A stretch of DNA of 64,000 bases from assembly GCA_044892505.1 (NCBI GenBank), contig CM097882.1, positions 375,472,001-375,536,000 of the forward strand, in the 5' to 3' direction. Positions 13,894 through 43,012 of the stretch are shown one piece after another. Numbering within the stretch: position 1 is the stretch's first letter; the number at the start of each line of letters is the position of its first letter. Made by a program: the position numbers and the translations under genes. Source of the DNA: Schmidtea nova. Lineage: Eukaryota. Below the pieces are notes generated by a model. It saw only the letters and a list, made by a program, of their open reading frames with translations, had not been told where the DNA came from and did no database searches.

Positions 13894-14529
13894 ATGAAAA
13901 ATAATAGATATGATGAACCAGGAAATAGAACCAGACGATATAGAGAGAACGTAATTCAAGATAATAATATTATAAAATGCTTTTGTTTCGGGGGTCAAGG
14001 CCATGTAGAAAGGGAATGTCCAAACAGACAACGAAGAAATATCGAGTGTTATGGATGTGGACAACAGGGACATACCCAGAGAGAATGTCCAAATAGGCAG
14101 CGAAGAATTATTTCATGTTATTCATGTGGAAAACAAGGCCATATCCAGAAAGATTGCTTGAATAGACCAAAAAGAGTCGTTACATACTATACATTTGGAG
14201 TAGAAGGACACGTAAGTAGAGATTGTAAAAAAGTCAGATGTCAAAGATGTGGATTAGGAGGTCACTGGGCAGAAGAATGTTACACAAATCTGAATAGGTT
14301 GAAACAAAACATGACAAATAGAGATAACAGACAACAAAAAGGAAATTACGAAATGGAAACAACGAAAGGAAGAAGAAATTACAATGGAACAAGGACCTAT
14401 CAAGATACACACAATGGACAAGTTGCATATATAAGAAGTGAAAGTTATGAAGACGATGAAGAGAGGTTCTCTAGTGCCCCAAATGAGAGGGTCCCGACAA
14501 GAGAGGACGTTGTCGGGGCGGTTTTTTAA
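13894..14529 (+). pseudogene. Gag nucleocapsid region with five tandem CCHC knuckles
   Basis: CFCFGGQGHVEREC, CYGCGQQGHTQREC, CYSCGKQGHIQKDC, YYTFGVEGHVSRDC (degenerate), CQRCGLGGHWAEEC. Confidence 0.88.
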
Positions 14530-14761
14530 ATGATGTCGGAGACTCCCACAAGGACAAAACAAGAGAGGAAATAGACTTGTGAGAGAATAGAAAGGATAAG
14601 GAGAAGAAGCAGGAAGACGAGGACAAACGAGTTGTAGAAAAAGTTAATAAGTTTTTTAAGAAGAAATTTGAGGAAAATGAGATATCTGAAGATGAAGAGC
14701 ATATAAGTACAGAAATCTTGACAATAGACAAAAGAGACCAAGTATTATCAGGTATTACATA

Positions 14762-17350: not shown

Positions 17351-17359
17351 GAAGGGGAA

Positions 17360-17709
17360 TGTGAGGATATTTCGACATGGTTATTAGCCAGCATTAAAAT
17401 TAAATAATTATTTATAGATAGTTAAAATAAGTTTTAAATGTTTAATTAAAAATTTTATGTTTAATATAATAATATTTTAAGTAAATTTTATAAAATAATT
17501 TTATATTAAAATAGTTTAATTTAATTTAAAAAGTTTAATCTTAAAAAAAAATAATAAATATGAATAAAATTTATAAGTGTTTTAAATAAAAATGCTCGTT
17601 TTTAAATTTGTTTAAATGTTCTCAAATAGACATACATTTTTCTTGAAATAAATATTTTGGGTGACTTTAGAATTTGAACTAACCGAAGATGTTTTAACAA
17701 CATCTAACA
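17360..17709 (+). repeat. 3' LTR of the Gypsy element (350 bp)
   Basis: TG..CA, follows the PPT, followed by the TSD; first ~95 bp match 13402-13500. Confidence 0.92.
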
Positions 17710-18526: not shown

Positions 18527-20915
18527 TGTTACAACACTTTTGGATTTAACCTAAACTTTTTCTTATTTTTATGACAAGGTAAGTGTTGAGGATATCTAAA
18601 TAACAAATAATATAATAGACAATTTGAATATCTTGGGGAAAACCGATATGATAATTGAGATAGCATCCTGGAGTTCGGAGAAGAAAAAAGAGAAGCAAAA
18701 AGTAAGAAATGAGGAAGGAATAAGAAAAAAAAGAAATTTAACAACAAAGCGGAGAAAGTTCACTTATAATTAATAAGTGCAAGAAAACAGAAAGGAATTC
18801 AGAAATTGGAAAACAAAACCGGTATCTTGTCAGTTGTCAAGATATTTCGGGAGCAATAAAAAGTATGAGAAGTGCCAGAAGCATAAATGGAAAAAAACAA
18901 ATTATCCCGAGTGCCGAACTGTCAGGGGCAACATGGGAATTTAAAAAAGAAAATGGAAAGGTGAAGTATCATGAGTAGATATTCAATGGAAAACTGAAAA
19001 AATAAGTAAAAATAACATAAAAGAAAAGAAAAACAAATTACTAATCCAACGTTAATATCCAGAGAAACAAGAGACCCCAGAATAGCGAAATCTAGAATAA
19101 ATTCACAAAAATAGCAAAAATTAATAAAATAATAGTACATTTATCATGAATTTTGACCTACAAGGCAGGATATTGAAAACTGTCGATCAACATATTAAAA
19201 TAAATAAAATAAAAAAACCGATCCATTTGACGGGATCGATCACGATAAATACTGAGCCGAAAATCAGTAGAATTATAAAATTTGGAACTTGTTTCCGATC
19301 AACTTAACTGATCGGAAACTTTCAATTTGAATCGTGAATTTCTCTACAAGCGAATTTTCGAGGATTTATATGTAATTTATTCTTTTGTGATTGTATACTT
19401 CCATGGTCTTATTGTTCATGATTTTGTTTTGTTAAATTTATTATTTTAAATATATTTGTTTATACTATGATTTTATAATTTTATTTATGATATTTTTAGG
19501 TTAAATGCAAATATGAGATGCTAATTAATATGAGCGCCCTCGGTAGCGCAAGCTTCGAGGGTGAGTTTCGTCCACGTGGGGCCAATGAGATCCACAAGAT
19601 GGTGAAGGTTTGTTTTTGTTTAAATTTAATTATTAATTGTGATAAGGATTTTATTTTTGGCATCAAAACTTTTCGAGTAACGATAGTTAGGGGAAATGAG
19701 CAAGCTAGATAGAAACATTAATTAGTTGAACCCACCCCATGTATAAGTGTTAAGATTGTTTTTAATTAGCAGTATTCCAGATATATTTCGCTGAGAAGGG
19801 GAACGAGAGTTTTGTTTTTTGCGATTCCCACTTTAAATGTAATAAATTAATATAGTTCTCACCCACTAGAACAGATTACACTAAGTATCTAGTTGAGGAG
19901 AATGAATAATGAATCTTTAAATTTAATTAAATAAATTCTAGAAAGATGAAAGGAATATGCGTCAGCAAGAAGTACAGTGAGAATGCACAAATATTGCGTG
20001 CTCAGGAAAGATATAAGGCCCAGCAGAGAAGGGTGTTGGGGCCACTCAAGAATCTACCGACATCTCTTTTGTGTACAATAGACGTATTGATGAGCAAGTG
20101 GCGCCAGGAGTTCAAAATGAGATGCCAATTTTCAATTTGGGAAAGTCTATATGACGAGATATGGTATCCTGGAGGAGTCTATTGGTCGATCTCGACAGAA
20201 GACAGCTATTCTGAAAAATATACAAGGTTGTTGATCATCACCAAAGATGATAAGCGGTGACCATAACTAGTAATCGACTGGGGATATATTCCGCAATATG
20301 AGTTTAAAGATCTTTGGATTATTTTAGCTAACTCTACTCGACCTTTCCGGAAAACACAAGAGGAAAAAATGAGAAGATTTTCAACGACACCATTAAGAAA
20401 AAATCGCGTTCGAGAAGGATTAAAATTAGACAAATCTTTTCATGGAACTCCGTGTTATGTTTTGATGAATGAGCTTAATCTAATAAAACATTATGTTACA
20501 ATTCATTTCCTTCATTTAGTAAACGAGCAACTAGGGCCAATATTTATTTTAGATAGTATAAATAATCAATTTATTGTAGCATGATGACCATATAAATGTT
20601 AAATAACTAATATAAAAGAATGTATTTTTCTCTTACAGTATGTCATCAAACCGATCAAACTAATACGCCGAGGTGAAATCTCGAAAGCATCAACACGAAT
20701 ATGAACGGGAAATTGAGAAACTGAAAACCCAAGTCCGAAGTCTCGTCACTGAAAATCAACGTCTGAATTAGAGTCTCTTTACCCCTGAGCAGATGAAGAT
20801 ACAGCTCATGCGTACGACAAGAGCCTAGCAAGCAACCATGGAAGTGCAACTCTAAGTCGAAGCAACAAAAGTGGAGCTATGAAAATGACTGAGCACGGTT
20901 ACCAGATCGTTCATT
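18527..20915 (+). mobile_element. Truncated large LTR-like unit with decayed two-ORF cassette (copy A)
   Basis: Starts TGTTACAAC, A-rich leader, splice-like sites; ORFs at 19946 and 20640 resemble ORFs at 37209 and 38032. Boundaries approximate. Confidence 0.5.
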
Positions 20916-22931
20916 GAGACCGACAAAATCAAAAGAAACATAAAAATCCACTGAAACAAAGACCTAGAAACTGCATTCGAAAAAGCAAAAACTAAATTGT
21001 CAAATACAAGTCTACTAAACTACGCCGACCCAAACCTAACCTACGCTATCAACACAGACTGTTCAGGAATAGTGATGAGAGACACAATATACCAGAAGAA
21101 AAATAACGAAAAACAACCCATTGCATTCTTTTCAAAAAATGTCAAGGTACACCAAATTCTATATTCTACTTTCGACAAGGAATTACTGGCAGTACACGAT
21201 AAAATAAAACACTTTCAATACCTTTTAGAAGGGAAAGAGTTCAAAGTGTATGCTAACCACAAACCACTAATAAACACAATCAACATGGAATTACCGTCAC
21301 CAAGACAAATACACAACTTAATTACATTTCACAATTCAATTGCAAAATAAAATACATATTAAGAGCAGAAAACATATGCGCAGATACACTTTCACAAATT
21401 GAAGCAGAAACAACGCAATCAGCATGATCCCAACAATAAAAAACAACCAAAAAACAACAAAAAACTTTACAAAACTCAACTCATTAGTTCTAAAAGAGAT
21501 TGATGGAATTTGGCACGATATCTCAAACTAAATCAACAAAAGACTAATAATACCTGATGAACACAGAATCCAACTCAACAAACAATTCCACAACATATAT
21601 CAATCAGGAACAAAAGCCACATACTAACTTATGCATACAAAAGTGGTATGGCCAAACATGAGGAAGGACATTAAAGAATTCGTCAACTCATGTATAAATT
21701 GTCAGAAAAACAAAATAATAACACAAATTCAAAACAACAAAAATCGAATTCCCTAAAACAGAACCTTTCCAAACTATCCATATAGACATAATTGACCCAT
21801 TACCCCCTAACAACAAATACTCACAATTATTGACAGAAACACAAACTGGTTTGAGTCTATCCCAACAAAAGAGATCTCAGCAGCAACAATTAATAGAAAA
21901 CTAGAACTAAACTAGTTTGCGAGATAAGGATACCAAAAATCAATCATCAGCGATTAAAGCAGACAATTTGAGTAAGACCCATTTAAAGGACTGTGCTCAA
22001 AATATAAAATTAAAAAAGTCAAAACAACAGAATACAACCCAAAATCAAACGGCAAAGTAGAAAGGCTACACAGATCTTTAAAACAAGCAATCACAGCCAA
22101 AGTCAGCGATAGGAACTGGTTAGAAAAACTCCCAGAAATTCTAATCAGTTTTCGAAACAACCCTTTGACGTTAAACAACAAAAGCCCCAGCCAACTAACT
22201 TTTAGACACTCAACAAACTTACCAAATCTGACAGAAATCATTGAGAAAACAAAAGAAAGTTCTGACATCAAAGAAAAAGCAAATCAAAACGAAACAAAAG
22301 AAGTACCCATAAAAAGACAATAAACCTAAACATTCAAAAGAAAATCTCATTGTCAAAACGGAACTAAAAAAACCTTTTACCGGCAGTTTCAAATCAAAAT
22401 ACGAAGGCCCTTACACACTACTTGAAATAAACGGAAACGTGGGTACATTACTAATAAACAACCAAAAAGTCAGAATTAACATTCGTAGATTAAAACCATA
22501 TCGATGCAACAACCAAACAACACACAACCCCTCTAACAACGAAAACCAAACCAGAAAATGACCTTTACAACCCCTCAACAAAAACACAGCTATATATAAC
22601 CAAAATAAAAAAAACGCTACAGTGATTGTCTCAAACAAAAACACCACACTTGCAAAAACAAATTTTATTTGTACAATTTTTATATTTTTATTGTGAGTTG
22701 AAGAATATAAACAGAAATATGTAAATAAAAATTATGCTTCTATTTGTAAATATTGTAGTCTCCGGTTTTAAAGGGGGAAGTAATGTAAATTTTTAGTTTC
22801 TAGTTTATTATATGACGTAGGTGCATATGGGTTTTTGACTTTTCTGTTAAGTATTTGTGTGCGACTTGTGTAGTATTTTCCTTTTATCTTTTTATATAAT
22901 GTGGAATAAAAATTTGAATTAAAAAAATTCA
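20915..22931 (+). mobile_element. 5'-truncated Gypsy relic (RNase H, integrase, PPT, start of 3' LTR)
   Basis: TAFEKAK, NTDCS, YSTFDKELLAV, YNPKSNGKVERLHRSLK, YEGPY; PPT AAAGGGGGAAG at 22770, TG at 22784; LTR end uncertain. Confidence 0.85.
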
Positions 22932-23585
22932 AAATTCAAAATTAAGAAAAATCAATAGTAATATTGAAGACATATCTAAAGAAATAAAACAAGAAATAAA
23001 ACTACTATAGAAACTAAAAGGAAAAAATAAATAACTAAGGAAATATTAGATTATATTGGCAAGATTAATTGCGGGAAAAGGAAAAACAAATTGTCAAAAG
23101 AATATAAGAAAGAAACCTAGAAACAAATTAAATACTAGAGAAGCTATTATAAAATCGGGAAAACTGCTAACACAGTTGGAATATTCGTTTCAATCGTTTC
23201 AAATTAAACTACTAATAAATTCATTCGTGAGTATAAATTTTTATATTTTGTTGTAGTCAATAAACTTATTTGTTCCAAAATTGTTATCTGTTATTACAAG
23301 CCTTCACTACATGCACAAGCACTCAGGCACACACATTCATACACATACACAACATACATACCAGCTGTCCCAAGACAGTTATTTTTTATAAAGGAGACTC
23401 TGCTGGACTCTGTAATCTTCTTTTACACAAACATTACTACATAAGTACATTTCACATCTGTCACATCTATTTCATAATATAATTGTACAACAACAGTACG
23501 TTAATATGTCTTATATAACCAGAAAATTCTTCCATTCAACATTACTTAAAAAATTATTTAATTTAAAAAAACATATTACTAAAAA

Positions 23586-24000
23586 TGGCAATGTCTCAAG
23601 TAGAGGAAAATGTTAGCGATGGAGAGGAAAGCTTAACAACAGCAACTAATACCATTCAAAAAAAGAGAGGTTGTCAGAAGAGCTGGGTAAAAGTAGAAAC
23701 ATTTGACAATGCATAAGAAGTAGAAAAATGGTTGGAGAATATATGCAAACATATTGTTGGAATAGCTTTTCGCTTGAAACTATGCAAAGTTCCATCTGCA
23801 GCGAAAACTGTTCCTATTGGTGAAAAAAGAAACCGAGTAGACCAGCAAAGGCTAACTTTACTGATAATAATTTTAAATTTACTGATCAAATAAATATTTA
23901 ACTGATCAATTATGTAAAAATTACTGTTTTTTATTCATTTATTGACTGACAATTTTAATTTACATTTACTGACCAATTAAACTTTTTTACAGATCATTAA
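23586..24000 (+). mobile_element. Internally deleted Mutator/MULE relic
   Basis: ICKHIVGIAFRLKLCKVPSAAKTVPIGEKR (SWIM-finger C-terminus) joined to an N-terminal fragment; followed by short TTTACTGA repeats. Confidence 0.65.
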
Positions 24001-24025
24001 CTTTTTAAGCCATTCTTCATATAGG

Positions 24026-24027
<2 letters not shown>

Positions 24028-24056
<29 letters not shown>
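24028..24056. repeat. (CT)n microsatellite
   Basis: Direct observation. Confidence 0.95.
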
Positions 24057-24058
<2 letters not shown>

Positions 24059-24059
24059 A

Positions 24060-24520
24060 TAATTTGCTAATATAAATTAACAAAAGTAATAGTCTATCAG
24101 GCTAAATCTCACAAAAACAAAACAATTAGCCTGGCGACATTTAACCTTTTACCCAAGGACTCTCCTTTAATAATTTATGTTAACTGGATATTGTCTGGCT
24201 TTAAGAAATAATTAAAATATTAATTTTGTTGTCAGGTCGGATTTTCCATTATCTTCGGCTTCCCGATAGCCACTTAAGTTTATTTGATATTTTTAATAAA
24301 TTTATAATTTCTTAATATATTTTTTCTAGGGAACCCCATTGACTTTTTATTATTACCTTCGCATTCGTCACACTATTTGCCCTCCGCTCAAAACCATTTC
24401 CTCTGCAAAATATTGAATTTTTATTTTTTATTAATTACATTTTAAATTGTGCCCATTTAAATGATTTGTTTTCACTTTATTTTTGCGTCAAATTAGATAT
24501 AAAATCAACAATTCTAAATT
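24060..24520 (-). repeat. Decayed LTR fragment related to the 9148-9950 solo LTR
   Basis: Shared blocks such as TTTCTAGGGAACCCCATTGACTTTTTAT vs TTTCTGGGGACCCCCCATCGATTTTAT. Confidence 0.5.
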
Positions 24521-25699
24521 AATTTCTAATAAAAGATTGATTTGGCAAATATTAATTTTGAAATCGATTAATTTATACAATGCATCAGACAATTAATTTG
24601 ACCATTATTAATTTCTGAAATAATTTAATATAGACAGCAATGTCAATTTTTCAAAAACTTTTTTGGAAAAAAGTGTTTTATAGTCCGAATTTTACAGTAT
24701 CTAATTACAAATAAATATTATTAACCTTTTATCATAAAAACCTTTCGACAGTTTATTCTCAAATTGATCAGTACTGTATAAATTGTAACTCGTTTCAAAT
24801 ATACAGGAATCCTCTATCAAATTATGCTCTTCTATTTTGTCATCAAAATCTGTGTCATTAAATGAACTTGAGTTCTTTGATTTTTCTGTGTTAAAAATCA
24901 AATCAATAAATATGACTTGGTAAAACTAGAAAAAGCATACGTGAAATAATAAGAAATAATTTAACCGTAAAAATATAGTTTATAAAACTCTATATTTCAC
25001 TCTCTTTATTTTTATCAAAACTGAAATTTCAATATGCGTTCTCAATGCTATGACATATTTATTCAAACTTATATAACATATTTTAGATATAATTACGTTA
25101 TCTCTTTAATCTGAAGTTAATGAATAGATAAGAATTTATATTGAAATAAGGAAATAACACTAGATTTGACATATCAATGCTTTTTAAATTAACCCACTTT
25201 CCGTGATCGGATCAATCTGAAATTTTGATAGCGTGTAGTGTTCTCAACATCAAATCTAATTGCCAAATGTCAGCTCGATACTATCATGCCGTGGCAAAGT
25301 TTGCGTGGCACAATCAGTCAAACGCGAAGTTAATATAGAAAGAGTAAAAACGTATGAATGATTTAGAATTTATAGAAATTTATCTGTTGAGTAAGTATTT
25401 TCCGCAAATTATTTGGTTAAACTTAAATTAAAACCATATGAAGTCTAAATAAGAAAGATCTATCTAAAAAATTTGTAATTTAAAGAATTTAAATGTCGAC
25501 ATACAAATTGACAGAAAGACTTCAAGTTTTTATACAAAATTAATGGGAAAATTCATTACAAAGATTAGCTTCCGAGACTTTTTACATAAAAAAATACAAA
25601 CCGTCCATCAACATTCAATTCGCACAAAAAAATTAAAATAAATTTTTTCATCCAATAAAATAATTATAAAATATTAAAAAAATAATTAAGGCTACTATT

Positions 25700-26270
25700 T
25701 AGGATTAAGTAAATATAACGATAGAAATACACACTTGATAAAGGCTGTGCCGAAATATTGTGTTATTGTTTATAAAAAAAAATTTGATCTATAGTCATNN
25801 NNNNNNNNNNNNNNNNNNNNNNNNNNNNNNNNNNNNNNNNNNNNNNNNNNNNNNNNNNNNNNNNNNNNNNNNNNNNNNNNNNNNNNNNNNNNNNNNNNNN
25901 NNNNNNNNNNNNNNNNNNNNNNNNNNNNNNNNNNNNNNNNNNNNNNNNNNNNNNNNNNNNNNNNNNNNNNNNNNNNNNNNNNNNNNNNNNNNNNNNNNNN
26001 NNNNNNNNNNNNNNNNNNNNNNNNNNNNNNNNNNNNNNNNNNNNNNNNNNNNNNNNNNNNNNNNNNNNNGACTATAGATCAAATTATTTTTTTATAAACA
26101 ATAACACAATATTTCGGCACAGCCATTATCAAGTGTGTATTTCTATCGTTATATTTATACACACTTGATAAAGGCTGTGCCGAAATATTGTAATATTGTT
26201 TATAAAAAAAAATTTGATCTATAGTCATTATGAGAATTATTGATAATAATAATAAAAAAAGATCAAAGGT
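25700..26270. repeat. Palindromic AAT-associated repeat, cluster 1
   Basis: Alternating copies of CACACTTGATAAAGGCTGTGCCGAAATATTG..GATCTATAGTCA and its reverse complement around N gaps. Confidence 0.9.
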
Positions 26271-28954
26271 NNNNNNNNNNNNNNNNNNNNNNNNNNNNNN
26301 NNNNNNNNNNNNNNNNNNNNNNNNNNNNNNNNNNNNNNNNNNNNNNNNNNNNNNNNNNNNNNNNNNNNNNNNNNNNNNNNNNNNNNNNNNNNNNNNNNNN
26401 NNNNNNNNNNNNNNNNNNNNNNNNNNNNNNNNNNNNNNNNNNNNNNNNNNNNNNNNNNNNNNNNNNNNTTCGTGTTAATCTATAAAAAAATAATGATTTA
26501 AATTTCTACTAAAAATAATGAAAATTATTATTAGATTCTTACGTAGATTCTTTTTATCGGGCTATTATAACATCAAATAACGTACGATTAATTCCTTAAT
26601 TGTGTCAAGAGATATTCGCTCAATTTATTCAATTGAGAATATTATTAACAAGAGTTTCCCCATCATCAACAATAGAAAAGTTAATGAATGTATTCATTCT
26701 AGTAGAATAGTACAATAACATAATTATGAAATGATAACCTTTATTAATGATGTTAAAGCTCGTAGCATCAAACCATTTAATTATTAATTATATAAATTTT
26801 TAATTAAAAAAACAATAATTTACTTGATAACTTATTCTGAATATCTTTGATTTCTTTCAAAATATTTGAATAATAAAGTTCTTCAGCTTCGAGGAAATTT
26901 AAAGATTTTTTAACTATAGTCGGATAATAATTTTGTTAAAATTAATATTTAAATACTCTTTCCTTTACTCCAGTAGAAATTTGCCAACTGTAAATATTAA
27001 TTATTTAAAAATATGCAAAATAAATAAATTATCAAATTTTTATGATGAAGAAATCTTTAGCTTAGGAAGAGTTGACAAAAGAACAAAAGAATACCTATGT
27101 GTTATGTAAACAGATAATTAAAAATACGTTTTAATTATTATTGTTGCTTAATTGAATTCTTAAGGAAACTTAGGAAACCGATTGCCTTAGTCGTACCAAT
27201 ATAAGTTTTGAAAGATTTATTTTATTTTACGTGAAAGCATTTAGATTTTCTAATTTCGTTATAATAATTAACAACAATGTTAACACAAGTTTTCGATAAC
27301 ACATTTAATTTTGATTTTTTTGATAAATTTTAAGCTTTACATGATTTTTTTTAAGGAGTACAACTTAAGCAACCTTGCCTTATATAAAGAAGGAGACTAT
27401 AACTAATATCGTATAATTTTCAAAGACTTAATGGCAATACCTGGTTAAAAGTATTTCTACAAGCTACATCTTGTCTTTTTATCATCGATATCATTAAAAT
27501 CCGTAGAAAGCACAGTTATCCTACAAAATATACCCGTGAACTCGTGACCGGACACTTACCAGTGAGCTCGCTTATCGAACTTTGTACACATACCTACCAA
27601 CACATTATCTATGTCGATAGAAGGCATCTTTGCGATTCACCTTACCTTAACAGGGATTGCTCATTCATTGATGTACAATACCAATTTGATCTTCAACATT
27701 TTTTATTGTTATATATTCCTTTCTCGATTTAACCTATTTGTGACCTAGCGTTAACACCCACTTTTGTTTTTGCACGCACCAATCTTTCAAAATATTGATC
27801 AGCGTTCCGCCCTTATTTTCAAGTTATGCTTTGAAATTTTCTAAGTTCCTTTTGAAAGATCGAAAAATTTGCAAAGGGATCCGTTATTATTTTCAGGTTT
27901 CGTTCGCAATTAGCCTGTTAATTTTGTCCTTCGAAAAATTTGCGGATGAATCTGCATGTATTTTCTGGCAATTTTCCCTGATAAAATAATTATACAATTT
28001 ATTTTGGTTCCATATCCTGAAAAGATCCCAGAATTTATAATTATTACTCTGTTTAGGGTAAGTGAGCTCGACAAGAATAAAAAGTCTTATCGGAGTTCTC
28101 CTTATTCCATCCCGCATGATTTTAGTCACAACTCTTTTACTTTACTAAGACCGTTCTGGAGACCTGTGGATAGCGCTAGAACGAACTAGAACAGAACGAA
28201 CTCGAGAAGAGAAGGTTTGATACTCTTTTGAGTCCATCCCTCTCGATTCCTTGTTCATACTTTTGAGAGTTATTCAAACTTTATGAAGATCGTGAGTCAA
28301 AACCTGACCAATAAAAAATAAAATAAAACTTCAAAATATTTATTATAAGAAAACTTTACTTCCAATTATCATTACACATTAAAAAATACAAATAACAATT
28401 GTGCAGAGTTCTGTAAATAAGTGAACTTTCAGATAAAAAAAATCTAACTGACGAGAGATAAACGAAGAATTAATTAACTCCTTCGTTGTGGCCATATAGA
28501 AATGCTGTGTGCAACAGGATAATTTGGTAATGTAATTTGGTTAAAACAAAGCACTTTTTATAATAAAACTTACAGGGTTCCAAAGACTATGCACAAAAAA
28601 TAACACCGTACATATAGATTGTCGAAGTGTAAAAAGAACAGTGTATGCCAAAGATATTCAAAATGTCACTAATTACACAGTGTACCAAAATCATAAAATG
28701 TTCTGTTCAAAGTTTTCTTTTAATTAATTAATTTATTCTAACGCCGCCTAGCGATTAAATTTGAAAAGAAATTGTTATTTTTGATGCTGTGTGCGATAGC
28801 AATTAAATGCAGTGTGTGGATTAATTTTATTAGTTACTTAATTGCAATACACAACATGACGAGACATACTCGTAAGTCACAGTGAAGGGGTTAATGATTA
28901 ATTTTAAAAACGTGACCAACAATATTAATAAATCTATTTCTTATTTTGTCTTTT

Positions 28955-29870
28955 CAATAATAATAAGAATAAAAATAAGAATAAGAATAATATTAATACG
29001 AATAAGAATATTAATATTAATAGCAATAATATTAATAATAATAACAATAATAATATTAATCAATAATTCCCATAATGATGACTATACATCAAAATTTGTT
29101 TTTATAAACAATAACACAATATTTCGGCACAGCCTTTATCAAGTGTGTATCCACACTTGATAAAGGCTGTACCGAAATATTGTGTTATTGTTTATAAAAA
29201 CAAATTTTGATCTATAGTCATCATTATGGGAATTATTGATAAAAAAAGATCAAAGGTGAAAAAAGATAATTATGATAATGATAATAATAATAAAATTAAT
29301 AATAATAACAATATTAATATGAATAATAATAACAATAATAATATTAATATTATTAATAATAATAATAAATTAATAAGTAAGAAAATAAGCCTTTGCTGCA
29401 AAATCAATTTTATTAAGTGAGAAAATTTTCGATTAAAAATAATCCTCGTCAATTGAAAATTTATAATCGAAAATTTTCTCACTTAATAAAATTGTTTTTG
29501 CAGTAATGGCTAATTTTCTTACTTATTAATTTATTTAATACTTAATGCTTCTACCAGAGAGTCACCATTTTATAATAATAATATTATTAATATTATTATC
29601 AATAATTCTCATAATGACTATAGATCAAATTTTTTTTTATAAACAATAACACAATATTTCGGCACAGCCTTTATCAAGTGAAATACACACTTGATAAAGG
29701 CTGTGCCGAAATATTGTGTTATTGTTTATAAAAAAAAATTTTGATCTATAGTCATTATGAGAATTATTGATAATAATAATAAAAAAAGATCAAAGGTGAA
29801 AAAAGATAATTATGATAATATTATTAATAATAATAATATTATTAATAATAATAATAATAATAATAAATTA
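28955..29870. repeat. Palindromic AAT-associated repeat, cluster 2, with a nested unrelated hairpin (29365-29535)
   Basis: Two hairpins centred at ~29150 and ~29683 separated by AAT tracts; nested inverted repeat TTATTAAGTGAGAAAATTTTCGATTA / TAATCGAAAATTTTCTCACTTAATAA. Confidence 0.9.
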
Positions 29871-31012
29871 TTTGGCATTCAATCTGTAAGATGTATTTAT
29901 ATAAATTATTCATATTTATAGCATTTCTATTTTATTATTTTAATGTTGTAGTATGTTGAAATTGTTCGAAATATTATTTAGATTTAAATTAATTCTCCAT
30001 ATATGAATTAGGAAAATACGTTGCTTTAATAATATAGAATTTTCCACGTCTTTGAATTTGTTGATGCATTAAACTAAAGCAAATCCTAACACAATCGAAG
30101 TGCAATGGCAATGCAATATAAATTGAAAACATGTCTTTGTTTCAACATAGAAAATTATTTGAAAAAGTTCTTTGTTTCAACATAGAAAAATTTTTGAAAA
30201 ATGATGAGTCATATTACAACAAAGAAATATGACAACAAAAAAATTTTTTATTCGATTTCTGGAAAAATATAAACATTTCATGGGGGGGGGGTACTAAAAA
30301 GTTAGTAAAAATTGTTGAAAAGCTCTATGTTATAAAAACGACGAGTCATCGATTTTTTTGACATGACCACTTTGGCGCTTTATAGAACAAAGACCTTTAT
30401 AGGACAAAATGTATGACGCATCATCTTGTAGCATGACTCATCCTTTATCAGATGCATAACTCGCCATGATGACTCATCGCTTCACCGATGAGTCATTCCG
30501 TCTTGAGCCATAGAGTACCCTTCTCACTACTGTAACCTTTAACCCAGCTAAACGCGTGATGGTGTAAATTCCTACCATAGCATAAAAGTCACGTGATCCT
30601 TCTTAATTTTAAATGTAACTTACTTTTAGTTTAAGAAAGTAAAATTAGTCTAAAAAATAATAATATCATAGCCCAGTTCCTTATCACCCTCAAAGGTTAA
30701 AATGCAAAGTTTTAAAATATTTTTTTTGCAATTTTGATACTTTCTTTCGCCACCTTCCAATTTAGAAGAGGCTAAAAGCAGATAGAAATAGGATTATAGA
30801 AATGTGGAAAATCACTCAATGGTGAAATGCATAGACGATTTTACTGATAAATAAAATATTTCAAAATAAAAAGCTATTGCTTTTTTAAGTTATTATTTCT
30901 GTACGAGTAGAAGGACTTATAAAGTATTTTTAATAATGATGTACTTTTTTAATTATTTTTATTATTATTGGGCGTATTATTATTTGATTATTATATTCTT
31001 ATACACATTTAA

Positions 31013-31948
31013 CCCTTTAAGGACGGGATTTTTTAAAAGAAAGTTTTAAAAAAATAAACATGTTTTTTATTCAAAAGTTTATTTTTGTATGATAAATTTC
31101 AAAACAATCAACAACACAACCCAACATCACAATAATTACATAATGTAATTTACATTCAAATCTTGGTCGCTTATTTGCAAATTTTTTTGATCCTGTTGTA
31201 CAAACTATACATTTTCTTTGGCCGGTAATGTTTTGATTGTTCTTTTCAATGTAAGAAGGAAAGTGTCTTGAAGATAAACGAAGAGGATTAGATATTCTTG
31301 ATCTACCAACACTTGTTTTACGCATTGAACCGTATTAGCAGGATTACACAGATAAACACATACATTTCACTCGAACTTGTATCATACTATTTGAATATTC
31401 TTGATGTGAACACTGCTGATGATAAGTATTTGTTTGAATAACAATATAATTTATAAATTCTTCATCTAAGAAATGTTCAAAATAATCAATTGAAAAAGAA
31501 ACAATCTAATTGAATTTCTGAATTTACACCTGGAATATATGTAAAATTCCATTATTTAGGTTGAAAATGACCATCGACCCAGTCTGAACTTGATAAATTT
31601 GATTCATTTTCACTATCTGAACCAGAATAATCTTCGATTTCAGTTTCAGAACCAGAATCTTCATCACAAAAAAATTCAGAAATAAGAGTTAGAATTATCC
31701 ATTTCAGATATAAATTTCAAAATAAAACTTTTTTTATAAAAACTTCTCAATTTATTGATTTTTTGAACAGAATGTGATTTTACAATGGGAAAAAATATCA
31801 AAATTTTTTAATTTTTTCAAAGTAGGTCATGCTATATATCAAAATGTGCATCTTTTAATTATCTTTCAAATGATTCCTAAATAAAAAATTGTTAACCCGG
31901 TCTCAAGATATTTGAGTTAGTATATATAGTACGCCCGTCCTGAAAGGG
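31013..31948 (-). mobile_element. Non-autonomous (internally deleted) piggyBac
   Basis: TTAA TSDs, TIRs CCCTTT.AGGACGGG, acidic N-terminal relic and C-terminal Cys-rich domain (RLSSRHFP..RKCIVC..RFECK). Confidence 0.93.
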
Positions 31949-34900
31949 TTAAACAATACTTATAGAATTATTGATCGTAAAATGTATTATCTGTACCCGA
32001 AGTAACCGGAATGAATTGAAATGAAGCACAGAAAAGATATCATTTCTATCAGTATAAATCACATTCGAAATGCAAAACCGCGAAGCTAATGATCCGCCCA
32101 ATCTAAATACGTGGCATTACATTCGGGTATTCCCGCAGATAGCTCATTTTATAATTGTTTTTAAAAATAATTTCAAAAAATCTAAAAACGACTTACCGAT
32201 CTGAGGCATCGAGGAATATTGGAAAATTTACTGTCTTCTTCAAGATCCTGTAAACATTTCCTGTAGTATAGGGCGCTTTTTTCTAGTAAACCAATTTTTT
32301 TATATTTCTGAATTTTTTATTTTTTTTGTAAGGTTAAAAACTTCTTTCTTACCTCAGCCTTTTGAAAGTTTTGCTCTCTTTCAGATATTTCCATGCTTCT
32401 TTTATAAGAAAATGATCAAAAATAAATACAAAATGTGCAAAGAATTGCCCTATTTCTATATAAATATGCTTTGTTTAATAATTGAATTCAGTTTTATTTA
32501 TTATTCATAATCAATTATAATTTTATAAGTTATTGAAATTGATATAATATTGTTAACATTATTATTCAAATATTCAAACAAACAAATGTTATGCAGAAAG
32601 AAAAAGTAAAAAATAATATTAAAATAAATAAAATAATCAAACAAATAAATATTGAATGGTTTGGACTGAATAAATTTTATTGTTCTAAATTTTTTAAAAA
32701 TTAATTTAAAATTTTGGTGCCCTAACCACACTATATAAATATTATGCAAAATACAGCACAGTAGAAATTTTAATATATATATATATCCGGTATACCGGTA
32801 TTTGAGCTAAAATAGTAAAATTATAATACCGACGAGGTCGCCCGCAGAAAATTTCTAAGGGGGCAAAATATTTTTAGTAATGTTTTAATGAATTTTTAAT
32901 TTACTGTAGCGTATTGGTATGGTGAACGAACGGGCAGAACACTGTATTAATGAAGGGCATACTGTAGCAACAAATTGTTTATTAACACAAAATATGTTTA
33001 GAACAAAAATATTACGACATAAATTTAAAATAAATTTATTCTTTAAACAAGAACTAGAATCGTCTGTCCATCTTGTCTCACATAGAAAAGGAATATTTGG
33101 GACAGGGGACCTCATTTTTGGGTTTTCACGAACGCTTGACGCTCACGTCACACCAGTGCGTCGCCAACCTGGCGATGATGTTGCTCCAGGCTGGCCAACG
33201 TTCTGTTTCTCCACACTTTCTTTATGCTAACACAAAGTGATTTAAAATAAAAGTAATATTATTTGACTATTTTCAATCAATCCCCCTTGCGATATTCATA
33301 TATACTGACATTAACGTTATTGAAATTTCTTTTATTCAAATAATTTCTATAATTTTTAAAAATTTTAGAAATATTTTTCAATGAAAAAATATTTCAAATG
33401 AATTTTGCCAAAAAAATTTCGTTAAATTTGAACACACCACGATAAATTTACTGAGTAACAATAGTCAGAAAAAATCAGAAAAATTGTCAATATTCAATTA
33501 TAATTTTAAAACGAATGCATCGTTAATCGGGATAGACACAGACAAAATTGTATATTTAGTAAGCACTTTTAAAAATAAAATATAAATTCTTTCATTAAGA
33601 AATGCAATCAAGAAATTGTTATCGTTAAGATTAAAAATGGAATTAAATATAAAAAATCAAAAAAAATATTTTTTTAATAATTTTCATGATATTTCAAAAA
33701 ATAAAGATTTTTGAAAAGCTCCTTGTTCTATAAATTCATAAGCAGTCCATTGAGTCCAATGGATAATGGGACCTGGTTTTAATGATGAAACAGAAGTAAA
33801 AACGTTGGTAGTTATATTATTATATAACAAATGATAATATTTTATCCTGATTTTATTAATTTATTTCTTAAATTTATAGCAATTTTTATTTTATAAATAT
33901 TTGAAATTAGACAAATAGAAGACAAACAACATTCTCGATATTTAATTTTCTTAAATGTTAAAGAGCTATGTAAGTTCATAAAGTTTTTCTGTTTATGGAG
34001 GTAATAATGTTGTTATAAGGGCAATATTAAAGTAGTTTCGTTAATTTAAATAAGGAAATTATTTTACCAAAAGCGCAGAATGCTATTATGGACCATATAA
34101 TGTTGACGGCTAATGAATATTTTGATGAAAAATATATTCATCCAATAAAATAATAAATTAATTTAGGGTTTCTCATCAAAACCCATTTAATAAGACTCTA
34201 TCCGTTTTTGTTTAAAGACCGATTAACCTTGAATTCAAAGACTTACTTTTAAAAGGCAACTGAGGTGAGCCATTTACTCATCAACGTGACCACATAGGTA
34301 AATCTTTTATATTTGAAGTTGACACATCTTTCACCACTTTCTCAAAGATTCCAGTCAAAATTCTCCAAACCCTCTTGATTCGTGTATTTTACCATCTTAT
34401 TACACAACCAAATACTTTTCAGAAACCACACCAAACAATACTCCAGGGTTTCTTTTATCTTTTACCTTTCCTTTTGTCTTATGTATATGTATGCATTTAT
34501 CAAGTACTGTAACATTTGCTTTTGTTTATAGCATATTGATTCTGGAAATGTTGTGTTATAATTTACAAATTTTTATTTGTTCATTGAAACACATCTTGGC
34601 ATTTGTTAAATACCACTTAGCATTTTCTTTGCCGAAAATGTGGGCACCCGAATTTATTGCGTAAGTCAAAAGCGTTCAGTGTAGACTTAAAGACTGTATT
34701 ATTTTCCAATGTATATATTTTTCACTTTGATTGATTAAAACTTTCCTGAAATTGACTCGACAGAAAATTCCACATGGCTATAAATGTGTTATGTGGAAAA
34801 TTCTATAGTTGCATTCTATCGAGGAACTATCGAGGAAATTCTACATTCAAAACTACCGACAGGTCAATTTGTCACATGATTAATACTGTCTTACAAATAG

Positions 34901-37208
34901 GTTCATTTAAAACTTTAGTCAAGAGTGTTGGAAAAAATCTTTTATTCTTTTATTGCAATTTCTTTTTTAATGGAATGAACTCATAAATGTTAACTGTCAA
35001 AATAAGGGATCTAATAGTTCTAGTATCAATCACGAGATCCATGTTGTTGGGTTGACAAACATAAATAAATGTGATAATCAACAATTAATTAAGAAATGAC
35101 AATAATCAAAGAAAAACATTAAGGTAACAATAAAACAAGCAAAGAATAATCAATAAGAAAAGATTACAATTAAAACAAATAAATAAAATTGGAAATCGAT
35201 CAAAAGTGACAAAATTACGAAATTGAGCAGAAATTAGAAAAACAGAGAATTAAGGAAAATAAATACAATGAATAAAAGAAATAAAAAAAAATAACAGAAT
35301 AATAACAGAATAATGGAATAAAATATGATAATATTATAAATCGGGTCATTGGACCAATAAAACAGCAGCTCAATTCTGATTGGCTGCCTGAGCGTTGATT
35401 TCACTATATAAGGAAGCGCTCAGGACAGCATAATTAATGTCATTTCCACACCAAAAACCAGTTAAATTCGCGTCCAGCACATACTTACATAATTATCAAC
35501 AACACTCGGAGGAAGAACCATTCGATTTGCAAATCTTGAGCGGAAAGCAGTTGTAAGTATTTGTGTTATGATCTAAATATAAATTTATACCAAAAATCAC
35601 ACTCGTTCTCACATGTTTTATTTTAATATATATAATGTGAGAGTTCGGCGATCCCGTTGATTATCGGCTCTCCGGGGTTATCTCTCTCTGCTTCGTGTCT
35701 CGACACGGGCGGAGATAGGTTGCTCCGTAAAGACCTTTTCATAGTACAGATAGTTAATGACGGGTGAATGTTGGAAAAGGCAGTAGTGTTCCCAAATCCC
35801 GGACCCAACATCAATTTTTAGGGAAAATTACGCTAGAATTGTGGCAATGACGAGCGTTGCAATTGTAGAAGCACGAATTTCAAATGATGACAGTGGCGAC
35901 CAAGACCCCACTGAGGTTTTTGATGAATAAAAGTATGAAGGTCTTAAAGCAGGCAGTGGGGTTCCAGAATCTTTTAATTGAACTACCAATTAACCAAAAA
36001 TTGCTTACGAGTTATAAAAATGACCAGTGTCCCAACGGGGGATTGTTTTTCCAGAATGTGAACAATGTCAATAATTTTCCGAACCCGATTAGGTAATTCC
36101 CAGTGAATAAAAGTTGCGAGCCCGTGAGCGAGAGCAATCCGATTTCCAGCATCGTGTAGTTAACATAACGGGGTTGTTTAGTCGATGTTTATACCACAAC
36201 CCACCCAATGAAATGAATTCCGAGTATTTTACCAGCTGATCTAAATTACCAAATGTAAATCGATTGCCCATTGAGATGTGAATTTTCCAGGGTTTCCGTA
36301 GCGCATCAAGCATGCCAAATTAGCCGAAATAATCTCGTTCGCATCTGTCGAAAATTTAACAAATTTCCCTCCACATGAATTACGTCACCAACTAGACACG
36401 ACAGTAAATGATATTCAAGTCAGCCTAAAAATATGTAGACGACATCGCCCAGTAAATAGAAATGAGTCCCACATTATCAGATAATTAACAAGCGGTAATG
36501 GCAACCGAGTATAGGGAAATGTTATCGTGAAATATTTGCAGTTAATCCAAAATACGTGCGAGCGAAATCAAATTTCCGGAAGGGTAATTATTGATCACTA
36601 CAACATCAATGATAATTTCACCATTACTGAGGAAGTGCGTCGCAATTAAACTGTCTCGCCTAGAAGGGGAACCCATGGCACTTTGACAATTATCCGAGTT
36701 TTTCAGACAGCAATTAAATTTAATCGTTGATATGCGACAATTAAATCGACAAATGGGCAAGTCCCCATGCGCAATTAAATGTTACTACATGCAATTCCGA
36801 CTGATAATGTGGAAAATCGTAAATAGGGAATATGCAGTCTAACGAATTGTGGGTGCTACGCATTAGAGTTTTAATAGTTAATGCACGATATCGGAAATTC
36901 AGCATGGCCCTAGAATACTTACGAACTCTATAAATGTCAATAACCACACCGCCCGGAACCCTAAATAAATGTCAAACGTACGCGANNNNNNNNNNNNNNN
37001 NNNNNNNNNNNNNNNNNNNNNNNNNNNNNNNNNNNNNNNNNNNNNNNNNNNNNNNNNNNNNNNNNNNNNNNNNNNNNNNNNNNNNNNNNNNNNNNNNNNN
37101 NNNNNNNNNNNNNCATAACATGTTCTACACTGGCATACAAATTCAAGGAACGAGTCGTCGACGAATCAGGCAACTACAATCCATCGCGGCGTTTATAACA
37201 ATCATTTA

Positions 37209-37487
37209 GTGCTATCAATGCCCCTCAAGGAAATACCAACCGAACTCGCCAGAGAAATTTTCGCTGAGCATAGAACGGAATTTGGACTAACGGGGGCCAC
37301 TCCTCCGTTCAGTTTATTTAGAGATAGCCCATCGGAAGTCATCTGGCGTGGCAGTAAGGAGTGGCCGATCGATGTGGATCGCCCTTACTGGCCCAATCAA
37401 GCAAGCTATTTCGTGGAGACTTTCACTGAGATTCCCGGGAGATTTATGTGTACTTCAAAGAGGAGATACCACAAGCCGAATTTTTAA
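37209..37487 (+). pseudogene. Cassette ORF1, unknown family (disrupted)
   Basis: PLKEIPTEL..HRTEF..FSLF..EVIWRG..WPI aligns with PLKNLPTSL..WRQEF..FSIW..EIWYPG..WSI in 19946-20260. Confidence 0.6.
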
Positions 37488-38031
37488 GTACGGGACGCTT
37501 TGTGTTTGCTCCTGCTCCAACGCCAAGCCCTACCGACTCGCCGTTCAGCCCCTCGACGCTCAGTGAATCCGAAGGAAATAGTAGTGATGTCGAAATCCTC
37601 GGGGAAGACTATATATTTTAAAAATGCGTGATCAATGTAGTTATTATATGTTCCGTCGTTGTTCTTCAATTATCTTGGGAAATTAAAAAATTTAGTGTAG
37701 ATACATAAAGTAATAATCGTGAATAAGAAATGCGGGTAAATATGAATGAATAAATTGGTAAAAGCATAGACAACAAAGTGGTATTTTACAATTAATAGAA
37801 ATCGACCTAGTTAAGTGAAAGAAAGTCAAGGAAAGCGTCGTATATAATAAATGGGGACAAGTTATATAAATGCCCAGGGTTAGGCAACCGAGAGTAGTCA
37901 CAGAAAGAGATTGATGACAGGTAGAATAAAATTTTATGGGAACCGAGTAAGAGCTGCTTCGAAATCACTCGTATTGTTATTAAATATAATCTGACGGTTA
38001 CGAATTTGTTTTCTATCTCCAAACAGGAACT

Positions 38032-38448
38032 ATGGCTATCAATGAAAAGATCATAGGACAGCTAAAGAGAAGAATCATCGACGTTGAGAGCAGTTATTTC
38101 TCGCCGACGGAAATGAAGAGAGTAAACGAAAAGTTGATAAGAGCAACGCAAGTAATACAAGACCAGAGGATAGAGATAGATGCGTTAAAAATTGAACTGA
38201 AAAAACTGCCAATCGTTTATCACGGAAAAGTTCATTTTAAGGGTTTGATTCGCCCGATAATCTTGGAGAAGTGGTTTCTCACGCCGGATCAGTCAACGAG
38301 TACAGCAATCGAGACGACTACAATTCAGCCGACAAAGCGAAAACGACGTAAATCACATGCGCAACGCCGACAACAGATGAAGCTGAAGTTGAAGATCGAA
38401 GCCAACAAAGTGATCATTGAAGCTAACATTTCCCGAGCGAGGGACTAA
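38032..38448 (+). CDS. Cassette ORF2, 138-aa coiled-coil protein with basic tail
   Basis: Acceptor AAACAG just upstream of ATG; heptad pattern; KRKRRK; AATAAA downstream; aligns with decayed frame at 20640-20890. Confidence 0.6.
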   Translation: MAINEKIIGQLKRRIIDVESSYFSPTEMKRVNEKLIRATQVIQDQRIEIDALKIELKKLPIVYHGKVHFKGLIRPIILEKWFLTPDQSTSTAIETTTIQPTKRKRRKSHAQRRQQMKLKLKIEANKVIIEANISRARD

Positions 38449-40530
38449 AAACACAAAAAATTAAATGCATTTCTAACTGTAATGTTATATGAATAAATAT
38501 ATGTATATAAATAAAAATGTGTTGTTGCTTATCGGATAAGGTTCAAGTTAGAGTAAATGCTAAAGAGAATAATAGTGAATCGTAAACTTAAGTCGAGTTG
38601 TCTTGTAAAGCGGTAAGGAATAAGGTAGCTAGTAAGAATGATTAAAGAAGTAGGCTGAAGTGCAAGTTAGGAAACAGGAAGCGTACACCCGAAAGAGAGA
38701 CCAACGCAGGGTGAGGAGAAATAGAGTAAGACCTTCTATCGGTCAAGCGAGAACCCGAAAGATGCGACAAGTCAGAAGTAGTTCTTGTAAAGGATCTCAC
38801 CTGCTGACTTGCGATTGGCTATTATACACACTACCAACGTGAATGATTAGGGTAATTCACGGGTGTTTGAACAGTAAAGCTTTTATGTGTGTGTTGGACC
38901 CTAGAGAGCATGGAAGTACAATTCAGAAAGAGAAAATCCGAAAGTCAGAAAGTCAGAAAGCCAATTCAAGTTTAAATTTTTACCACAACACACCAACACT
39001 GTGATATAAACATTTATGCAACTATCTTCACTATAGCACAATTAGCATGATGCTTCTTCCTTAGACGTTAGAGTTTGTGACAAAAAATAGAAGAACATCA
39101 TTTAGCGGAAGATTCTACTGATGACGTAAATGTTTGTATTCATGCCAGCTTGCGTTTAAGTCTCAGTTTTATTGCAAAAGTTGCATTTGCTTTTGATGAG
39201 CTGATAGAAACAAGCCATCAACAATTTTACAAATCAATGACAACATAAAAACCGAAAAGAAACCATTGATAAAGTTTGAAATTTCTTAACAGTTTATTTA
39301 ACAGCTCAGAATAATAGTTTACATTTGTTAGATACAGGGAAAATTGGAGAAGTATTTGAGTTGGATGAAGATTATAGCATAGGAATGAATAGGTACAAAC
39401 TATACATACACATTGAGCCAACCCCAAACAAGTCATAAAATACGATTATTCCTTACCGATTACAAAACTAATTTATCTTTGGGATCCTGACAGTTCATTT
39501 TGTGATTGATATCGGCAATTTATCTGTATTATGTTGACAATTAATCTATCATCATGACAATTTATCAATTTAAAATTCATGATCTTGCGAACATTTATTG
39601 ACTTTGTTTATGGTGATGGACAAAATATTATGTAATTTTGAAAGAATATTTTGTTTTAAAAATATTTTATGTAAATTAATATCTGAAAATATTTGAAAAT
39701 GGTATATATTTTGATTTATTTTTTTATTTATATTTTAATATTTTAATTCAATAAAATAAATTATAATAATAAAATAAATAAATAATACTGATTGTTTAAA
39801 TAAATTAAAATAAATAAATTACTGTTTGTTTAAATAAATTATATTTATGACCTACAAAGATCAGCAAAATAAAAAAATATTCCAATGTTAAAAAATGATT
39901 CTGTTTTGAAAACAATTTCAATCAACTAAAGTACCAAAATAACAATCATTATTGGCAGATTAAGTGCCTTAAAATTTAGTATAGAAACTGACTGATTTTT
40001 CAGACAAATCACCCCTAAAATCTTGTATTCTAAGATTAATTACAATTTTGGTAGACGACATTCTTTGATCATGCTTTTCGTTATTTTTATACAGCGATGA
40101 TCTTCCCCATTCAATTCTCGTGCAGTCCTTCGTGTGTAAATGCGACCTGCACTCAAACTGTGGGCTCTCTCTTGCGATGCCTCATTTCTATCATTTAAGA
40201 GCTATCTCCACCGACTTATCGAATACAGTTAGTATTATTACTGTAAATGTATATATTCACTGTTCAATATTAGTTTTAGTTGTTTGTATATGTGAATGTG
40301 AAGAAGAATTGTAGGTCCCGAGAGAGTCTGACGTTAGCAATGTGCCGACACTCGGGGTGTATGTTGTGTCGTGCGGGTACAGAGATAATAAACCAAATAA
40401 GAAAATAAACCGATAAAATGTATTAATAACCAACAAATAATTTAAAGTCTAACTATAAAAGTCTAACTTCGGTAATCTTCACGTCGTCTTTATCCAATTC
40501 TTTATTTTGTTGACTCACTATTAACGCTTG

Positions 40531-41782: not shown

Positions 41783-42898
41783 TGTTGGTGAAATTTAAAA
41801 TTTATTTAACCCACAAAATAACAATTTTGAGACAATATAAACTTTTATTGATTATCACAGTTGACTACACAAATTACAATGACAGGTTCAATTCAATACT
41901 ACACCAGTTAATTATATAGCGCTTATTGCAACACTTCATGGGGAATAGCACTAATGTATAATACCTAAAATTTAACAATCACTGACCAGAGTTGGATTCA
42001 ACAATTGTCAAATTGATTTTGGTTGTTCTCTTGCTCTGACTTGGTAATTTATTCAATAGGTTTCGACTCTTTTCTTATTCGATTAAATTTTGTTTTGCTA
42101 CGTTCAATTTAATCTTCTCAAATTAACATTTTCCAATAATATAATTCTAATAGACTCAATAAGTTTCTTTTCAATCTCCTCTAACAACTTCAATTTCTCC
42201 AACCTAATATCCTCTTTTCTAATTATTAATTTCTTTAATTCTAACTTCTAGCTTCTCTAATTTTTAACTTCTCCAATTTCACTTCTCCAATCTGAATCTT
42301 TTCTTTTAACTTCTATAATCTGAATTCTAATTAATCTACTGTGGTTTCTCCCTTTTTAAGCTCGTCATTCTCTCATACTTGAGATTATTTTTATTTTCCC
42401 ATTTCTTTGATTCCAGCATATTCCATACTTTCTTCATGGCTCTTGCTTTATCTCTGACAGCTATCAAGATATGCCATTCCTTCCTTTTTGTTGTTCCGAC
42501 TTTTTCCACAGCACTCTTGATATCTCTGAAAAATGTCAAGATATGAATTTTCTTATTGTTTTTGTTTTCCAATTTTGGAATTTCTTTTCCTTTTTTTGCA
42601 GTTATTAATTATCAATGACCTTATCTTGCTTTATTGTTCGATTTCTTTTATTTTGCTAATATTTTTTGGCCTGCCTTCTTCTTTTCCAAGTTCCAGAACA
42701 TCGTCTCGTTTAGCATGTCAATTTTCCTTCCAATTATTTTATTTACTTATGATATTATTTAATTTTATTATTTAGGTATATTTAACATATATAATTCCTG
42801 TATTGGTAATATTGAGAACCATTTGGTCATACATCGAAATAGATAATAAAGTTGGTGTGTTGGTGTGTTGGTAGATGTTGTTCAACTTGGGGTTTACA
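41783..42898 (-). mobile_element. Solo LTR (1116 bp) containing a decayed ORF
   Basis: TG..CA termini with perfect 4-bp TSD GGGT; minus-strand AATAAA near the end; K/E-rich ORF relic ~42570-42100. Confidence 0.85.
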
Positions 42899-43012
42899 GG
42901 GTATTGATAAAAATTAAAATGAATATTTTTATTGATAAAAATTAAAATTCTTAAATTCCAGAATTTAAATAAAATTTATATATTTGCTTCAATCGATGAG
43001 CTTATTGATAAA

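Follow-up and report, generated by a model that had tools for sequence, protein, structure and literature searches.

Two predicted genes under purifying selection within the long terminal repeats of Burro-like giant Gypsy elements of Schmidtea nova

Long terminal repeats (LTRs) are usually treated as non-coding regulatory DNA, with mouse mammary tumour virus (MMTV) as the textbook exception, and to our knowledge coding genes are otherwise laid out within LTRs only in complex vertebrate retroviruses. The giant Gypsy elements of dugesiid planarians, known as Burro or GYPSM1, are described in section 7 of PMC6431247 as elements of about 30 kb with multi-kb LTRs and one giant polyprotein, which combines gag, an in-frame fusion glycoprotein before the protease, reverse transcriptase (RT), RNase H, integrase and ankyrin domains; MATH/TRAF and RING accessory modules are also reported. 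That section lists polyprotein domains and accessory open reading frames (ORFs), none of them in the LTRs. The locus considered here lies in a 64,000-nucleotide stretch of the Schmidtea nova genome (assembly GCA_044892505.1, contig CM097882.1, positions 375,472,001 to 375,536,000 of the forward strand), referred to below as the window. Two of its segments, copy A (18975-20923) and copy B (35045-38998), are LTRs of Burro-like giant Gypsy elements, as judged from their match to the published Burro description, and both hold the same pair of reading frames, ORF1 and ORF2. While Burro elements are already known, no description of the two LTR-borne genes, which match no known family, was found in the literature consulted, and from their sequence context they are likely spliced regulators of the element.

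When the ORFs were searched against their own genome, with the best 150 of 2,553-6,318 candidates scored per ORF query, many matches fell into same-strand pairs 21-27 kb apart. Paired repeats with TG..CA ends were found around gag-pol in two lineages, B and C. Among five loci examined in lineage B, to which copy B belongs, three displayed clean direct repeats of 3.6-3.7 kb that are 99.2-99.9% identical, one was interrupted and one was in tandem; in lineage C, which was reached with the copy-A query, direct repeats of 3.1 kb with 99.2-99.9% identity were present in all four loci. The full elements measure 29.7 kb in lineage C and 25 and 30 kb in lineage B. A preliminary description of this locus had proposed either giant LTRs or large retrotransposon derivatives (LARDs), and had asked whether the unit at 35045-38998 occurs as paired LTRs around gag-pol. 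Related 3.6-kb units do so, and LARDs are not supported, as the units flank full elements with internal gag-env-(pol) ORFs.

The internal region of lineages B and C resembles that of Burro in encoding gag (CCHC, Retrotrans_gag), an in-frame Monjiviricetes-type fusion glycoprotein, protease, in part of the elements RT, RNase H and integrase, and ankyrins. Pfam placed the fusion protein (PF24664, E 1e-50 to 1e-77) in frame between gag and protease, and likewise returned RVP, RVT_1, RNase H and rve. All of this is carried by a single giant polyprotein, whose frame in lineage C spans 5,685 codons, compared with 4,873 and 5,140 amino acids published for Burro (PMC6431247). TRAF/MATH and RING ORFs also lie between the paired LTRs; they are separate from the polyprotein, and the MATH/TRAF module, unlike that described for Burro in the same source, is a separate downstream ORF. 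No BIR, BCL2 or dUTPase domain was reported by Pfam at E 0.05, the published Burro calls resting partly on HHpred. Target-site duplications (TSDs) of 4 bp were found at loci of lineages B, C and A, and an 18-nt primer site 5-6 nt from the LTR, common to the loci, matches the host tRNA-Pro(TGG). This tRNA sits in a 308-bp tandem array with 899 pattern matches genome-wide. Ahead of the 3' LTR, no polypurine tract was present in lineages B and C, which instead display a conserved GC hairpin with a short run of G at its end; this raises the question of how plus-strand synthesis is primed.

Two forms of lineage B were observed. One of the five loci carries the 30-kb form with RT, RNase H and integrase, and in the other four, of 25 kb, the protease runs straight into the ankyrins; the shorter form keeps gag and the fusion protein and is a spreading non-autonomous derivative. 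A larger 44-kb element was considered on account of three LTR pairs 44.5-44.7 kb apart and was rejected, these being lineage-C elements with nested insertions of about 17.7 kb. The insertions have long inverted repeats and ORFs of 1350-1430 and 407 codons, a layout that is Polinton-like and was not confirmed by Pfam.

The four ORFs and the shared motifs quoted in the preliminary description are present at positions 19946, 20640, 37209 and 38032, and its proposal of an old protein-level relationship is well supported. ORF1 of copy A matches that of copy B by BLASTP at E 5e-4, and for ORF1 and ORF2 alike the protein score between the copies was reached by none of 1000 shuffles. When the 1348 frames of the window were searched, a profile of the A and C lineages found ORF1-B (E 7.9e-8) and ORF2-B (E 3.7e-11), and a profile built from lineage B only found ORF1-A (E 3e-4) and ORF2-A (E 2e-4). 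Profile-profile comparison across the lineages gave E 1e-12 for ORF1 and 1.4e-13 for ORF2. On this protein evidence both ORFs are homologous across the three lineages A, B and C. At the DNA level, as had been noted, copies A and B display no similarity beyond low-complexity sequence (best E 0.017). The order is also maintained, ORF2 lying downstream of ORF1 in 30/30, 17/20, 16/25 and 17/20 loci, the misses including loci with broken frames, copy A of the window among them. The homology is beyond chance, and the ORFs are multi-copy and LTR-borne.

In young elements, ORF1 and ORF2 are intact, stop to stop, in both LTRs (188 and 157 codons in lineage B, 159 and 202 in lineage C), and lineage-C ORF1 is free of stops in 139 of the 150 scored copies. 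Ratios of nonsynonymous to synonymous substitution (dN/dS, Nei-Gojobori) were significantly below 1 in 18/19 within-lineage pairs for ORF1 and in 16/16 for ORF2, the pairs sharing ancestry and hence not being independent. The values were typically 0.1-0.3, or dS was saturated, and the sole exception was a near-identical pair. Shifted reading frames, used as a control, gave dN/dS mostly at or above 1, and two internal control ORFs gave 0.14 (the TRAF ORF) and 0.24. On these codon statistics ORF1 and ORF2 are genes under purifying selection. That they serve no function in the element, being a host gene family, captured pseudogenes or frames open by chance, would be in keeping with the state of the window, where both copies are decayed and cannot make both proteins, and with the lack of homologues found outside this genome. 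Intact frames inside both LTRs of young elements, together with low dN/dS between subfamilies with saturated dS, similar to that of the internal TRAF ORF, make this explanation highly improbable.

As to outside homologues of ORF1 and ORF2, none were found in a 5.8-billion set, such sets possibly holding few flatworm repeat proteins, and ORF1 had none in a set of 1.84 billion. Neither ORF matched PDB sequences or Pfam; PHROGs returned one weak match (E 0.002) and the ESM Atlas no significant one (best 0.85-0.86). Fold searches with ORF1 were empty. The models used (pLDDT 40 and, at best, 50) are too poor to exclude a known fold, which ORF1 may yet have. ORF1 encodes a small protein of alpha/beta type, built around an aromatic/glycine core; its lineage-B versions close with a Ser/Pro-rich, acidic tail of a kind that would befit a transactivator or an adaptor. 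ORF2 displays a basic motif, defined by composition, with 8-10 lysine or arginine residues in 16 positions in 10 of 12 aligned proteins; the other two end or decay before it.

Copy B represents lineage B in the window, with the following features.

35045-38998, + strand: solo LTR of lineage B, 3954 bp, with TGTTGG..CCAACA ends
35354-35412, + strand: CCAAT/ATTGG boxes and TATATAAG, LTR promoter predicted from sequence, TATA position kept among B copies
35553-35558, + strand: predicted first splice donor GTAAGT, kept 49-74 nt before the hairpins in 8/11 B copies
35638-35730, + strand: GC-rich twin hairpin in a psi-like position just 3' of the donor (RNAalifold on 11 B copies)
37120-37621, + strand: ORF1-B, about 167 codons with two frameshifts, tail Ser/Pro-rich and acidic; intact in young LTR pairs
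37840-37952, + strand: TATA-like boxes of lineage B with a second donor, GTAAGA at 37947 (intron of about 80 nt predicted before ORF2); donor present in 20/23 B loci, counted where the acceptor motif was found
38010-38026, + strand: pyrimidine tract and CAG acceptor predicted ahead of ORF2; YAG at most 12 nt from the ATG in 24 of the 28 rows listed (of 39)
38032-38448, + strand: ORF2-B, 138 codons, open but locally shifted in its middle part; motif rich in Arg/Lys at residue 102
38492-38516, + strand: two AATAAA 3' of ORF2, then a GT-rich tract, predicted poly(A) site within the AATAAA positional cluster of 88 rows
38730-38870, + strand: RNA structure close to the 3' end of the LTR, conserved and covarying (22 copies, three lineages)

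The segment aligns end to end, in three blocks of 70-76% DNA identity, with both LTRs of the 25-30-kb elements, and its flanks, ATGT and CTGT, correspond to a 4-bp TSD with one mismatch (3/4 bases). From this end-to-end match to paired LTRs and the TSD-type flanks, copy B is a solo LTR. The TGTTGG..CCAACA unit, the CCAAT and TATA boxes, the donor at 35553 and acceptors at 19941, 20638 and 38026, all noted earlier, were recovered from the sequence. Two positions required revision: ORF1-B begins at the ATG at 37120 rather than at 37209 and runs to 37621 across its two frameshifts, and the conserved second donor of lineage B is that at 37947, not 37921. Relative to a young LTR, copy B retains identities of 0.65-0.84 in the promoter, hairpin, ORF and 3' bins, compared with 0.40-0.48 in the putative intron or spacer.

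The same order of parts was found in the LTRs of all lineages: an A-rich 5' part, CCAAT and TATA boxes at about 360-380, a donor, a GC-rich twin hairpin, a variable spacer, ORF1 with its acceptor and ATG, A(A/T)TAAA, ORF2 with its acceptor and ATG, AATAAA, the 3' RNA structure and the terminal CA. The TATA box occupies the same place in 9/11 B copies, the other two being incomplete, and is kept in about 14/21 A/C copies. Immediately before the ORF1 ATG, YAG was present in 24/24 old B rows (CAG in 13 and TAG in 11, with ORF1-B of the window itself excluded from the count), 13/13 C and 11/13 A, and before the ORF2 ATG in 15/15 C, 6/8 A and 24 of the 28 B rows listed. This YAG is CAG in some rows and TAG in others, a switch that is typical of acceptors. 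Among the 88 rows, which include many close copies and a few false matches, AATAAA is concentrated immediately behind ORF2, at 200-250 nt upstream of the 3' element, and no conserved AATAAA lies beyond it; in three LTRs none occurs from the TATA box to position 880 or later.

Both RNA structures were derived from the same alignments used to score them. The twin hairpin has double changes in 5/37 pairs among the 11 B copies, and its counterpart at the homologous position in 21 A/C copies covaries, with 92% paired and a covariation score reached by 0/500 shuffles; there, pairs with double changes are no more frequent than in shuffles. The 3' structure, aligned over 22 copies, has 91% of cells paired and double changes in 13/20 pairs, and its covariation score was likewise reached by 0/500 shuffles. 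Neither structure, nor anything else in the LTRs, matched Rfam, and consequently no known ribozyme or internal ribosome entry site is present. On the antisense strand, an invariant CTCACCTG bulge in the 3' structure (window 38730-38870 and relatives) has the sequence of a perfect donor site, and the segment with CTCACCTG also had the highest contig depth. In combination, the identity of the LTRs, their pairing around gag-env-pol, the homology and selection of the ORFs, the conserved splice and poly(A) motifs and the two covarying RNA structures form a set of observations that we hold with near certainty.

Copy A had been described as a large element and is instead an LTR fragment, with the features below.

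18975-20923, + strand: copy A, internal fragment of a lineage-A LTR of about 2.85 kb, without about the first 85 and the last 900 bases
19244-19608, + strand: promoter-like box at 19244, donor-like GTAATT at 19372 and twin hairpin at 19527-19608
19946-20450, + strand: ORF1-A, behind acceptor TAG 19941, interrupted by in-frame stops (20258, 20264); ATG preceded by YAG in 11/13 A copies
20640-20923, + strand: 5' part of ORF2-A, behind acceptor CAG 20638, with 6 in-frame stops, truncated at 20923
20923-22800, + strand: Gypsy RNase H-integrase remnant with polypurine tract and LTR start, which cuts copy A and lies outside the cassette (Pfam RT_RNaseH, rve_3)

Other copies match over exactly 18975-20923 with 65-76% DNA identity. 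The relatives of copy A start with TGTTG about 85 nt further upstream, end in CCAACA and measure 2.85 kb, one having a 4-bp TSD; these termini and the TSD fit a solo LTR. The placement of ORF1-A at 19946 on the + strand stands, with the reading now continued past the two stops to about 20450, and ORF2-A, read with X at its stops, matches the A/C profile at E 1.6e-29. Copy A as part of the downstream pol was considered and rejected, this pol being an unrelated, ordinary Gypsy: its RNase H is 33% identical to the Burro-like RNase H, and from 20923 onward the remnant has a 72% DNA match to another locus. A different dispersed repeat (window 18584-18818) borders copy A at its 5' break, and the repeat is found again, inverted, at 42560-42653. 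The preliminary description is partly supported: these are giant LTRs of a Burro-like Gypsy element in which promoter, splice and poly(A) signals accompany two accessory ORFs under selection, and they persist as solo LTRs.

These parts suggest the following expression scheme. Transcription would start about 390 nt into the LTR, giving a repeat (R) region of about 3 kb that ends after ORF2. A short exon 1 would be joined to ORF1 or ORF2 as alternative last exons, yielding LTR-only early mRNAs, and the unspliced RNA would retain the twin hairpin, in the position of a packaging signal, and read through to the primer site and gag-env-pol. We infer this layout as a whole with some confidence, as rather probable. 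ORF2 could bind an RNA structure via its Arg-rich motif and export or extend the unspliced RNA, with ORF1 as a second regulator (hence, perhaps, the acidic tail in lineage B); this is the weakest part of the scheme and is put forward tentatively. Until decay sets in, as it has in both window copies, a solo LTR would remain a complete expression unit. For the entire reading, in which Burro-like LTRs carry two selected genes on spliced early mRNAs and ORF2 acts as a Rev/Rex-like RNA-binding switch to full-length RNA, the chances appear evenly balanced. A still broader version is doubtful: that an early/late switch of the complex-retrovirus type evolved independently in an invertebrate env-bearing Gypsy, with promoter, two alternatively spliced genes, two RNA structures and poly(A) site within the R of about 3 kb, and that hundreds to thousands of solo LTRs persist as self-contained genes supplying a Rev/Rex-like and a second new protein in trans.

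Several observations weigh against this scheme. In the A and C lineages the donors are weak and their position varies, and AT-rich DNA offers many motifs of this kind. Transcription and splicing of the LTR genes are inferred only: in four contig sets of unknown kind all 30 LTR bins were covered, the putative intron included, and no GT..AG joint was seen among the 15 listed of 24; the sets behave like DNA and hence say nothing on splicing. ORF2 may have its own promoter, because lineage B has a second TATA box and donor before it. A spacing resembling a nuclear export signal (NES) occurs in 9/27 A/C ORF2 tails, is absent from the young C lineage and occurs in 1/31 B tails, and a crude heptad test for a coiled coil was positive in only 1/12 ORF2s. 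A primer site was found in 0/23 lineage-A copies, and no full-length lineage-A element was found. Finally, an R of about 3 kb requires read-through of the poly(A) signals in the 5' LTR and falls far outside the 11-150 bp quoted for retroviruses in PMC3601003.

In an alternative layout, the two genes would lie, with their own upstream promoter, in a 3.2-kb unique 3' (U3) region, as in MMTV or human T-lymphotropic virus, genomic RNA starting near the 3' structure. This structure would then be a short folded R that brings an upstream AATAAA to the cleavage site, and strong-stop complementary DNA would stay short. MMTV offers a precedent, its U3 encoding Sag/Naf with a U3 promoter, P2 (PMC9412291), and the strong covariation of the 3' structure, followed by a T/GT-rich tract with no conserved AATAAA downstream, fits as well. 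No conserved TATA box precedes the 3' structure, however, and the only conserved CCAAT/TATA, at about 360-380 nt from the LTR start, would give a U3 of normal length. In retroviruses the packaging signal comes after the major splice donor, and the twin hairpin, which follows the first donor directly, has the position expected of such a signal. The giant-U3 arrangement is considered unlikely, and is the main competitor to the scheme with a long R.

A different function is conceivable on the same anatomy, namely that the proteins are directed at the host and suppress piRNA (Piwi-interacting RNA) or RNA interference silencing, apoptosis or innate signalling, the basic motif being a nuclear localisation signal only. 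The TRAF/MATH, RING and ankyrin modules of the elements are of a host-manipulating kind, smedwi-2 knockdown de-represses Burro, which is a piRNA target (PMC8532177), and the NES-like motif is not conserved. Conversely, two conserved RNA structures and an early/late-type splice layout in one LTR call for a regulator at the RNA level, and no similarity to known suppressors was found, so that a host-directed role seems quite unlikely.

The window also holds features outside the two copies. A BEL/Pao polyprotein frame at 3-6236 (- strand) has 2078 codons, is open to the window edge and includes a ubiquitin domain as well as an HSP90 fragment at its N-terminus. At 13441-17456 lies another Gypsy element, separate and decayed, which displays gag zinc knuckles, RT and integrase, with the repeat D18 3952 bp apart. 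Two host genes were recognised, a single-frame kinesin with C-terminal motor at 42923-44881 (+ strand) and a bestrophin exon at 49692-50033 (- strand).

The literature consulted yielded no description of ORFs in Burro LTRs or of a Gypsy LTR that holds two genes, though Grohme et al. 2018, its supplements or the Repbase GYPSM1 entry could already mention them; the parts of PMC11410931 and PMC13238120 consulted added nothing on ORFs in Burro LTRs. Two selected genes in the LTRs of the largest known LTR elements provide a handle on how such elements control their expression. With at least 150 scored copies per query, and 2,553-6,318 unscored candidates, protein-coding cassettes can be spread by solo LTRs across the genome in a model group for stem-cell research, where LTR-borne ORFs may be mis-annotated as host genes.

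Rev, Rex, Rec and Rem are small export regulators that act on response elements. ORF2 resembles them as a small Arg-rich protein, predicted to be spliced early, with an NES-like tail in some lineages and structured LTR RNA; it differs in that no homology was detected and the NES-like motif is not universal, and binding and export are predicted by analogy. The plant elements Ogre and Retrosat2 likewise combine LTRs above 3 kb with extra ORFs of no assigned function (PMC6431247; PMC3485330). Those ORFs are internal, and PMC3485330, in the part consulted, treats LTRs as regulatory only. With MMTV the present elements share a protein-coding ORF wholly inside the LTR and an LTR-internal promoter, and MMTV also has a Rev-like regulator, Rem (PMC9412291). 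MMTV, a vertebrate retrovirus, has one such ORF upstream of its main promoter (PMC9412291), whereas here, with no sequence similarity found, two ORFs of a Metaviridae-type element lie downstream of a conserved TATA box, and each has an acceptor of its own. The LTR-borne genes suggest convergence with complex retroviruses.

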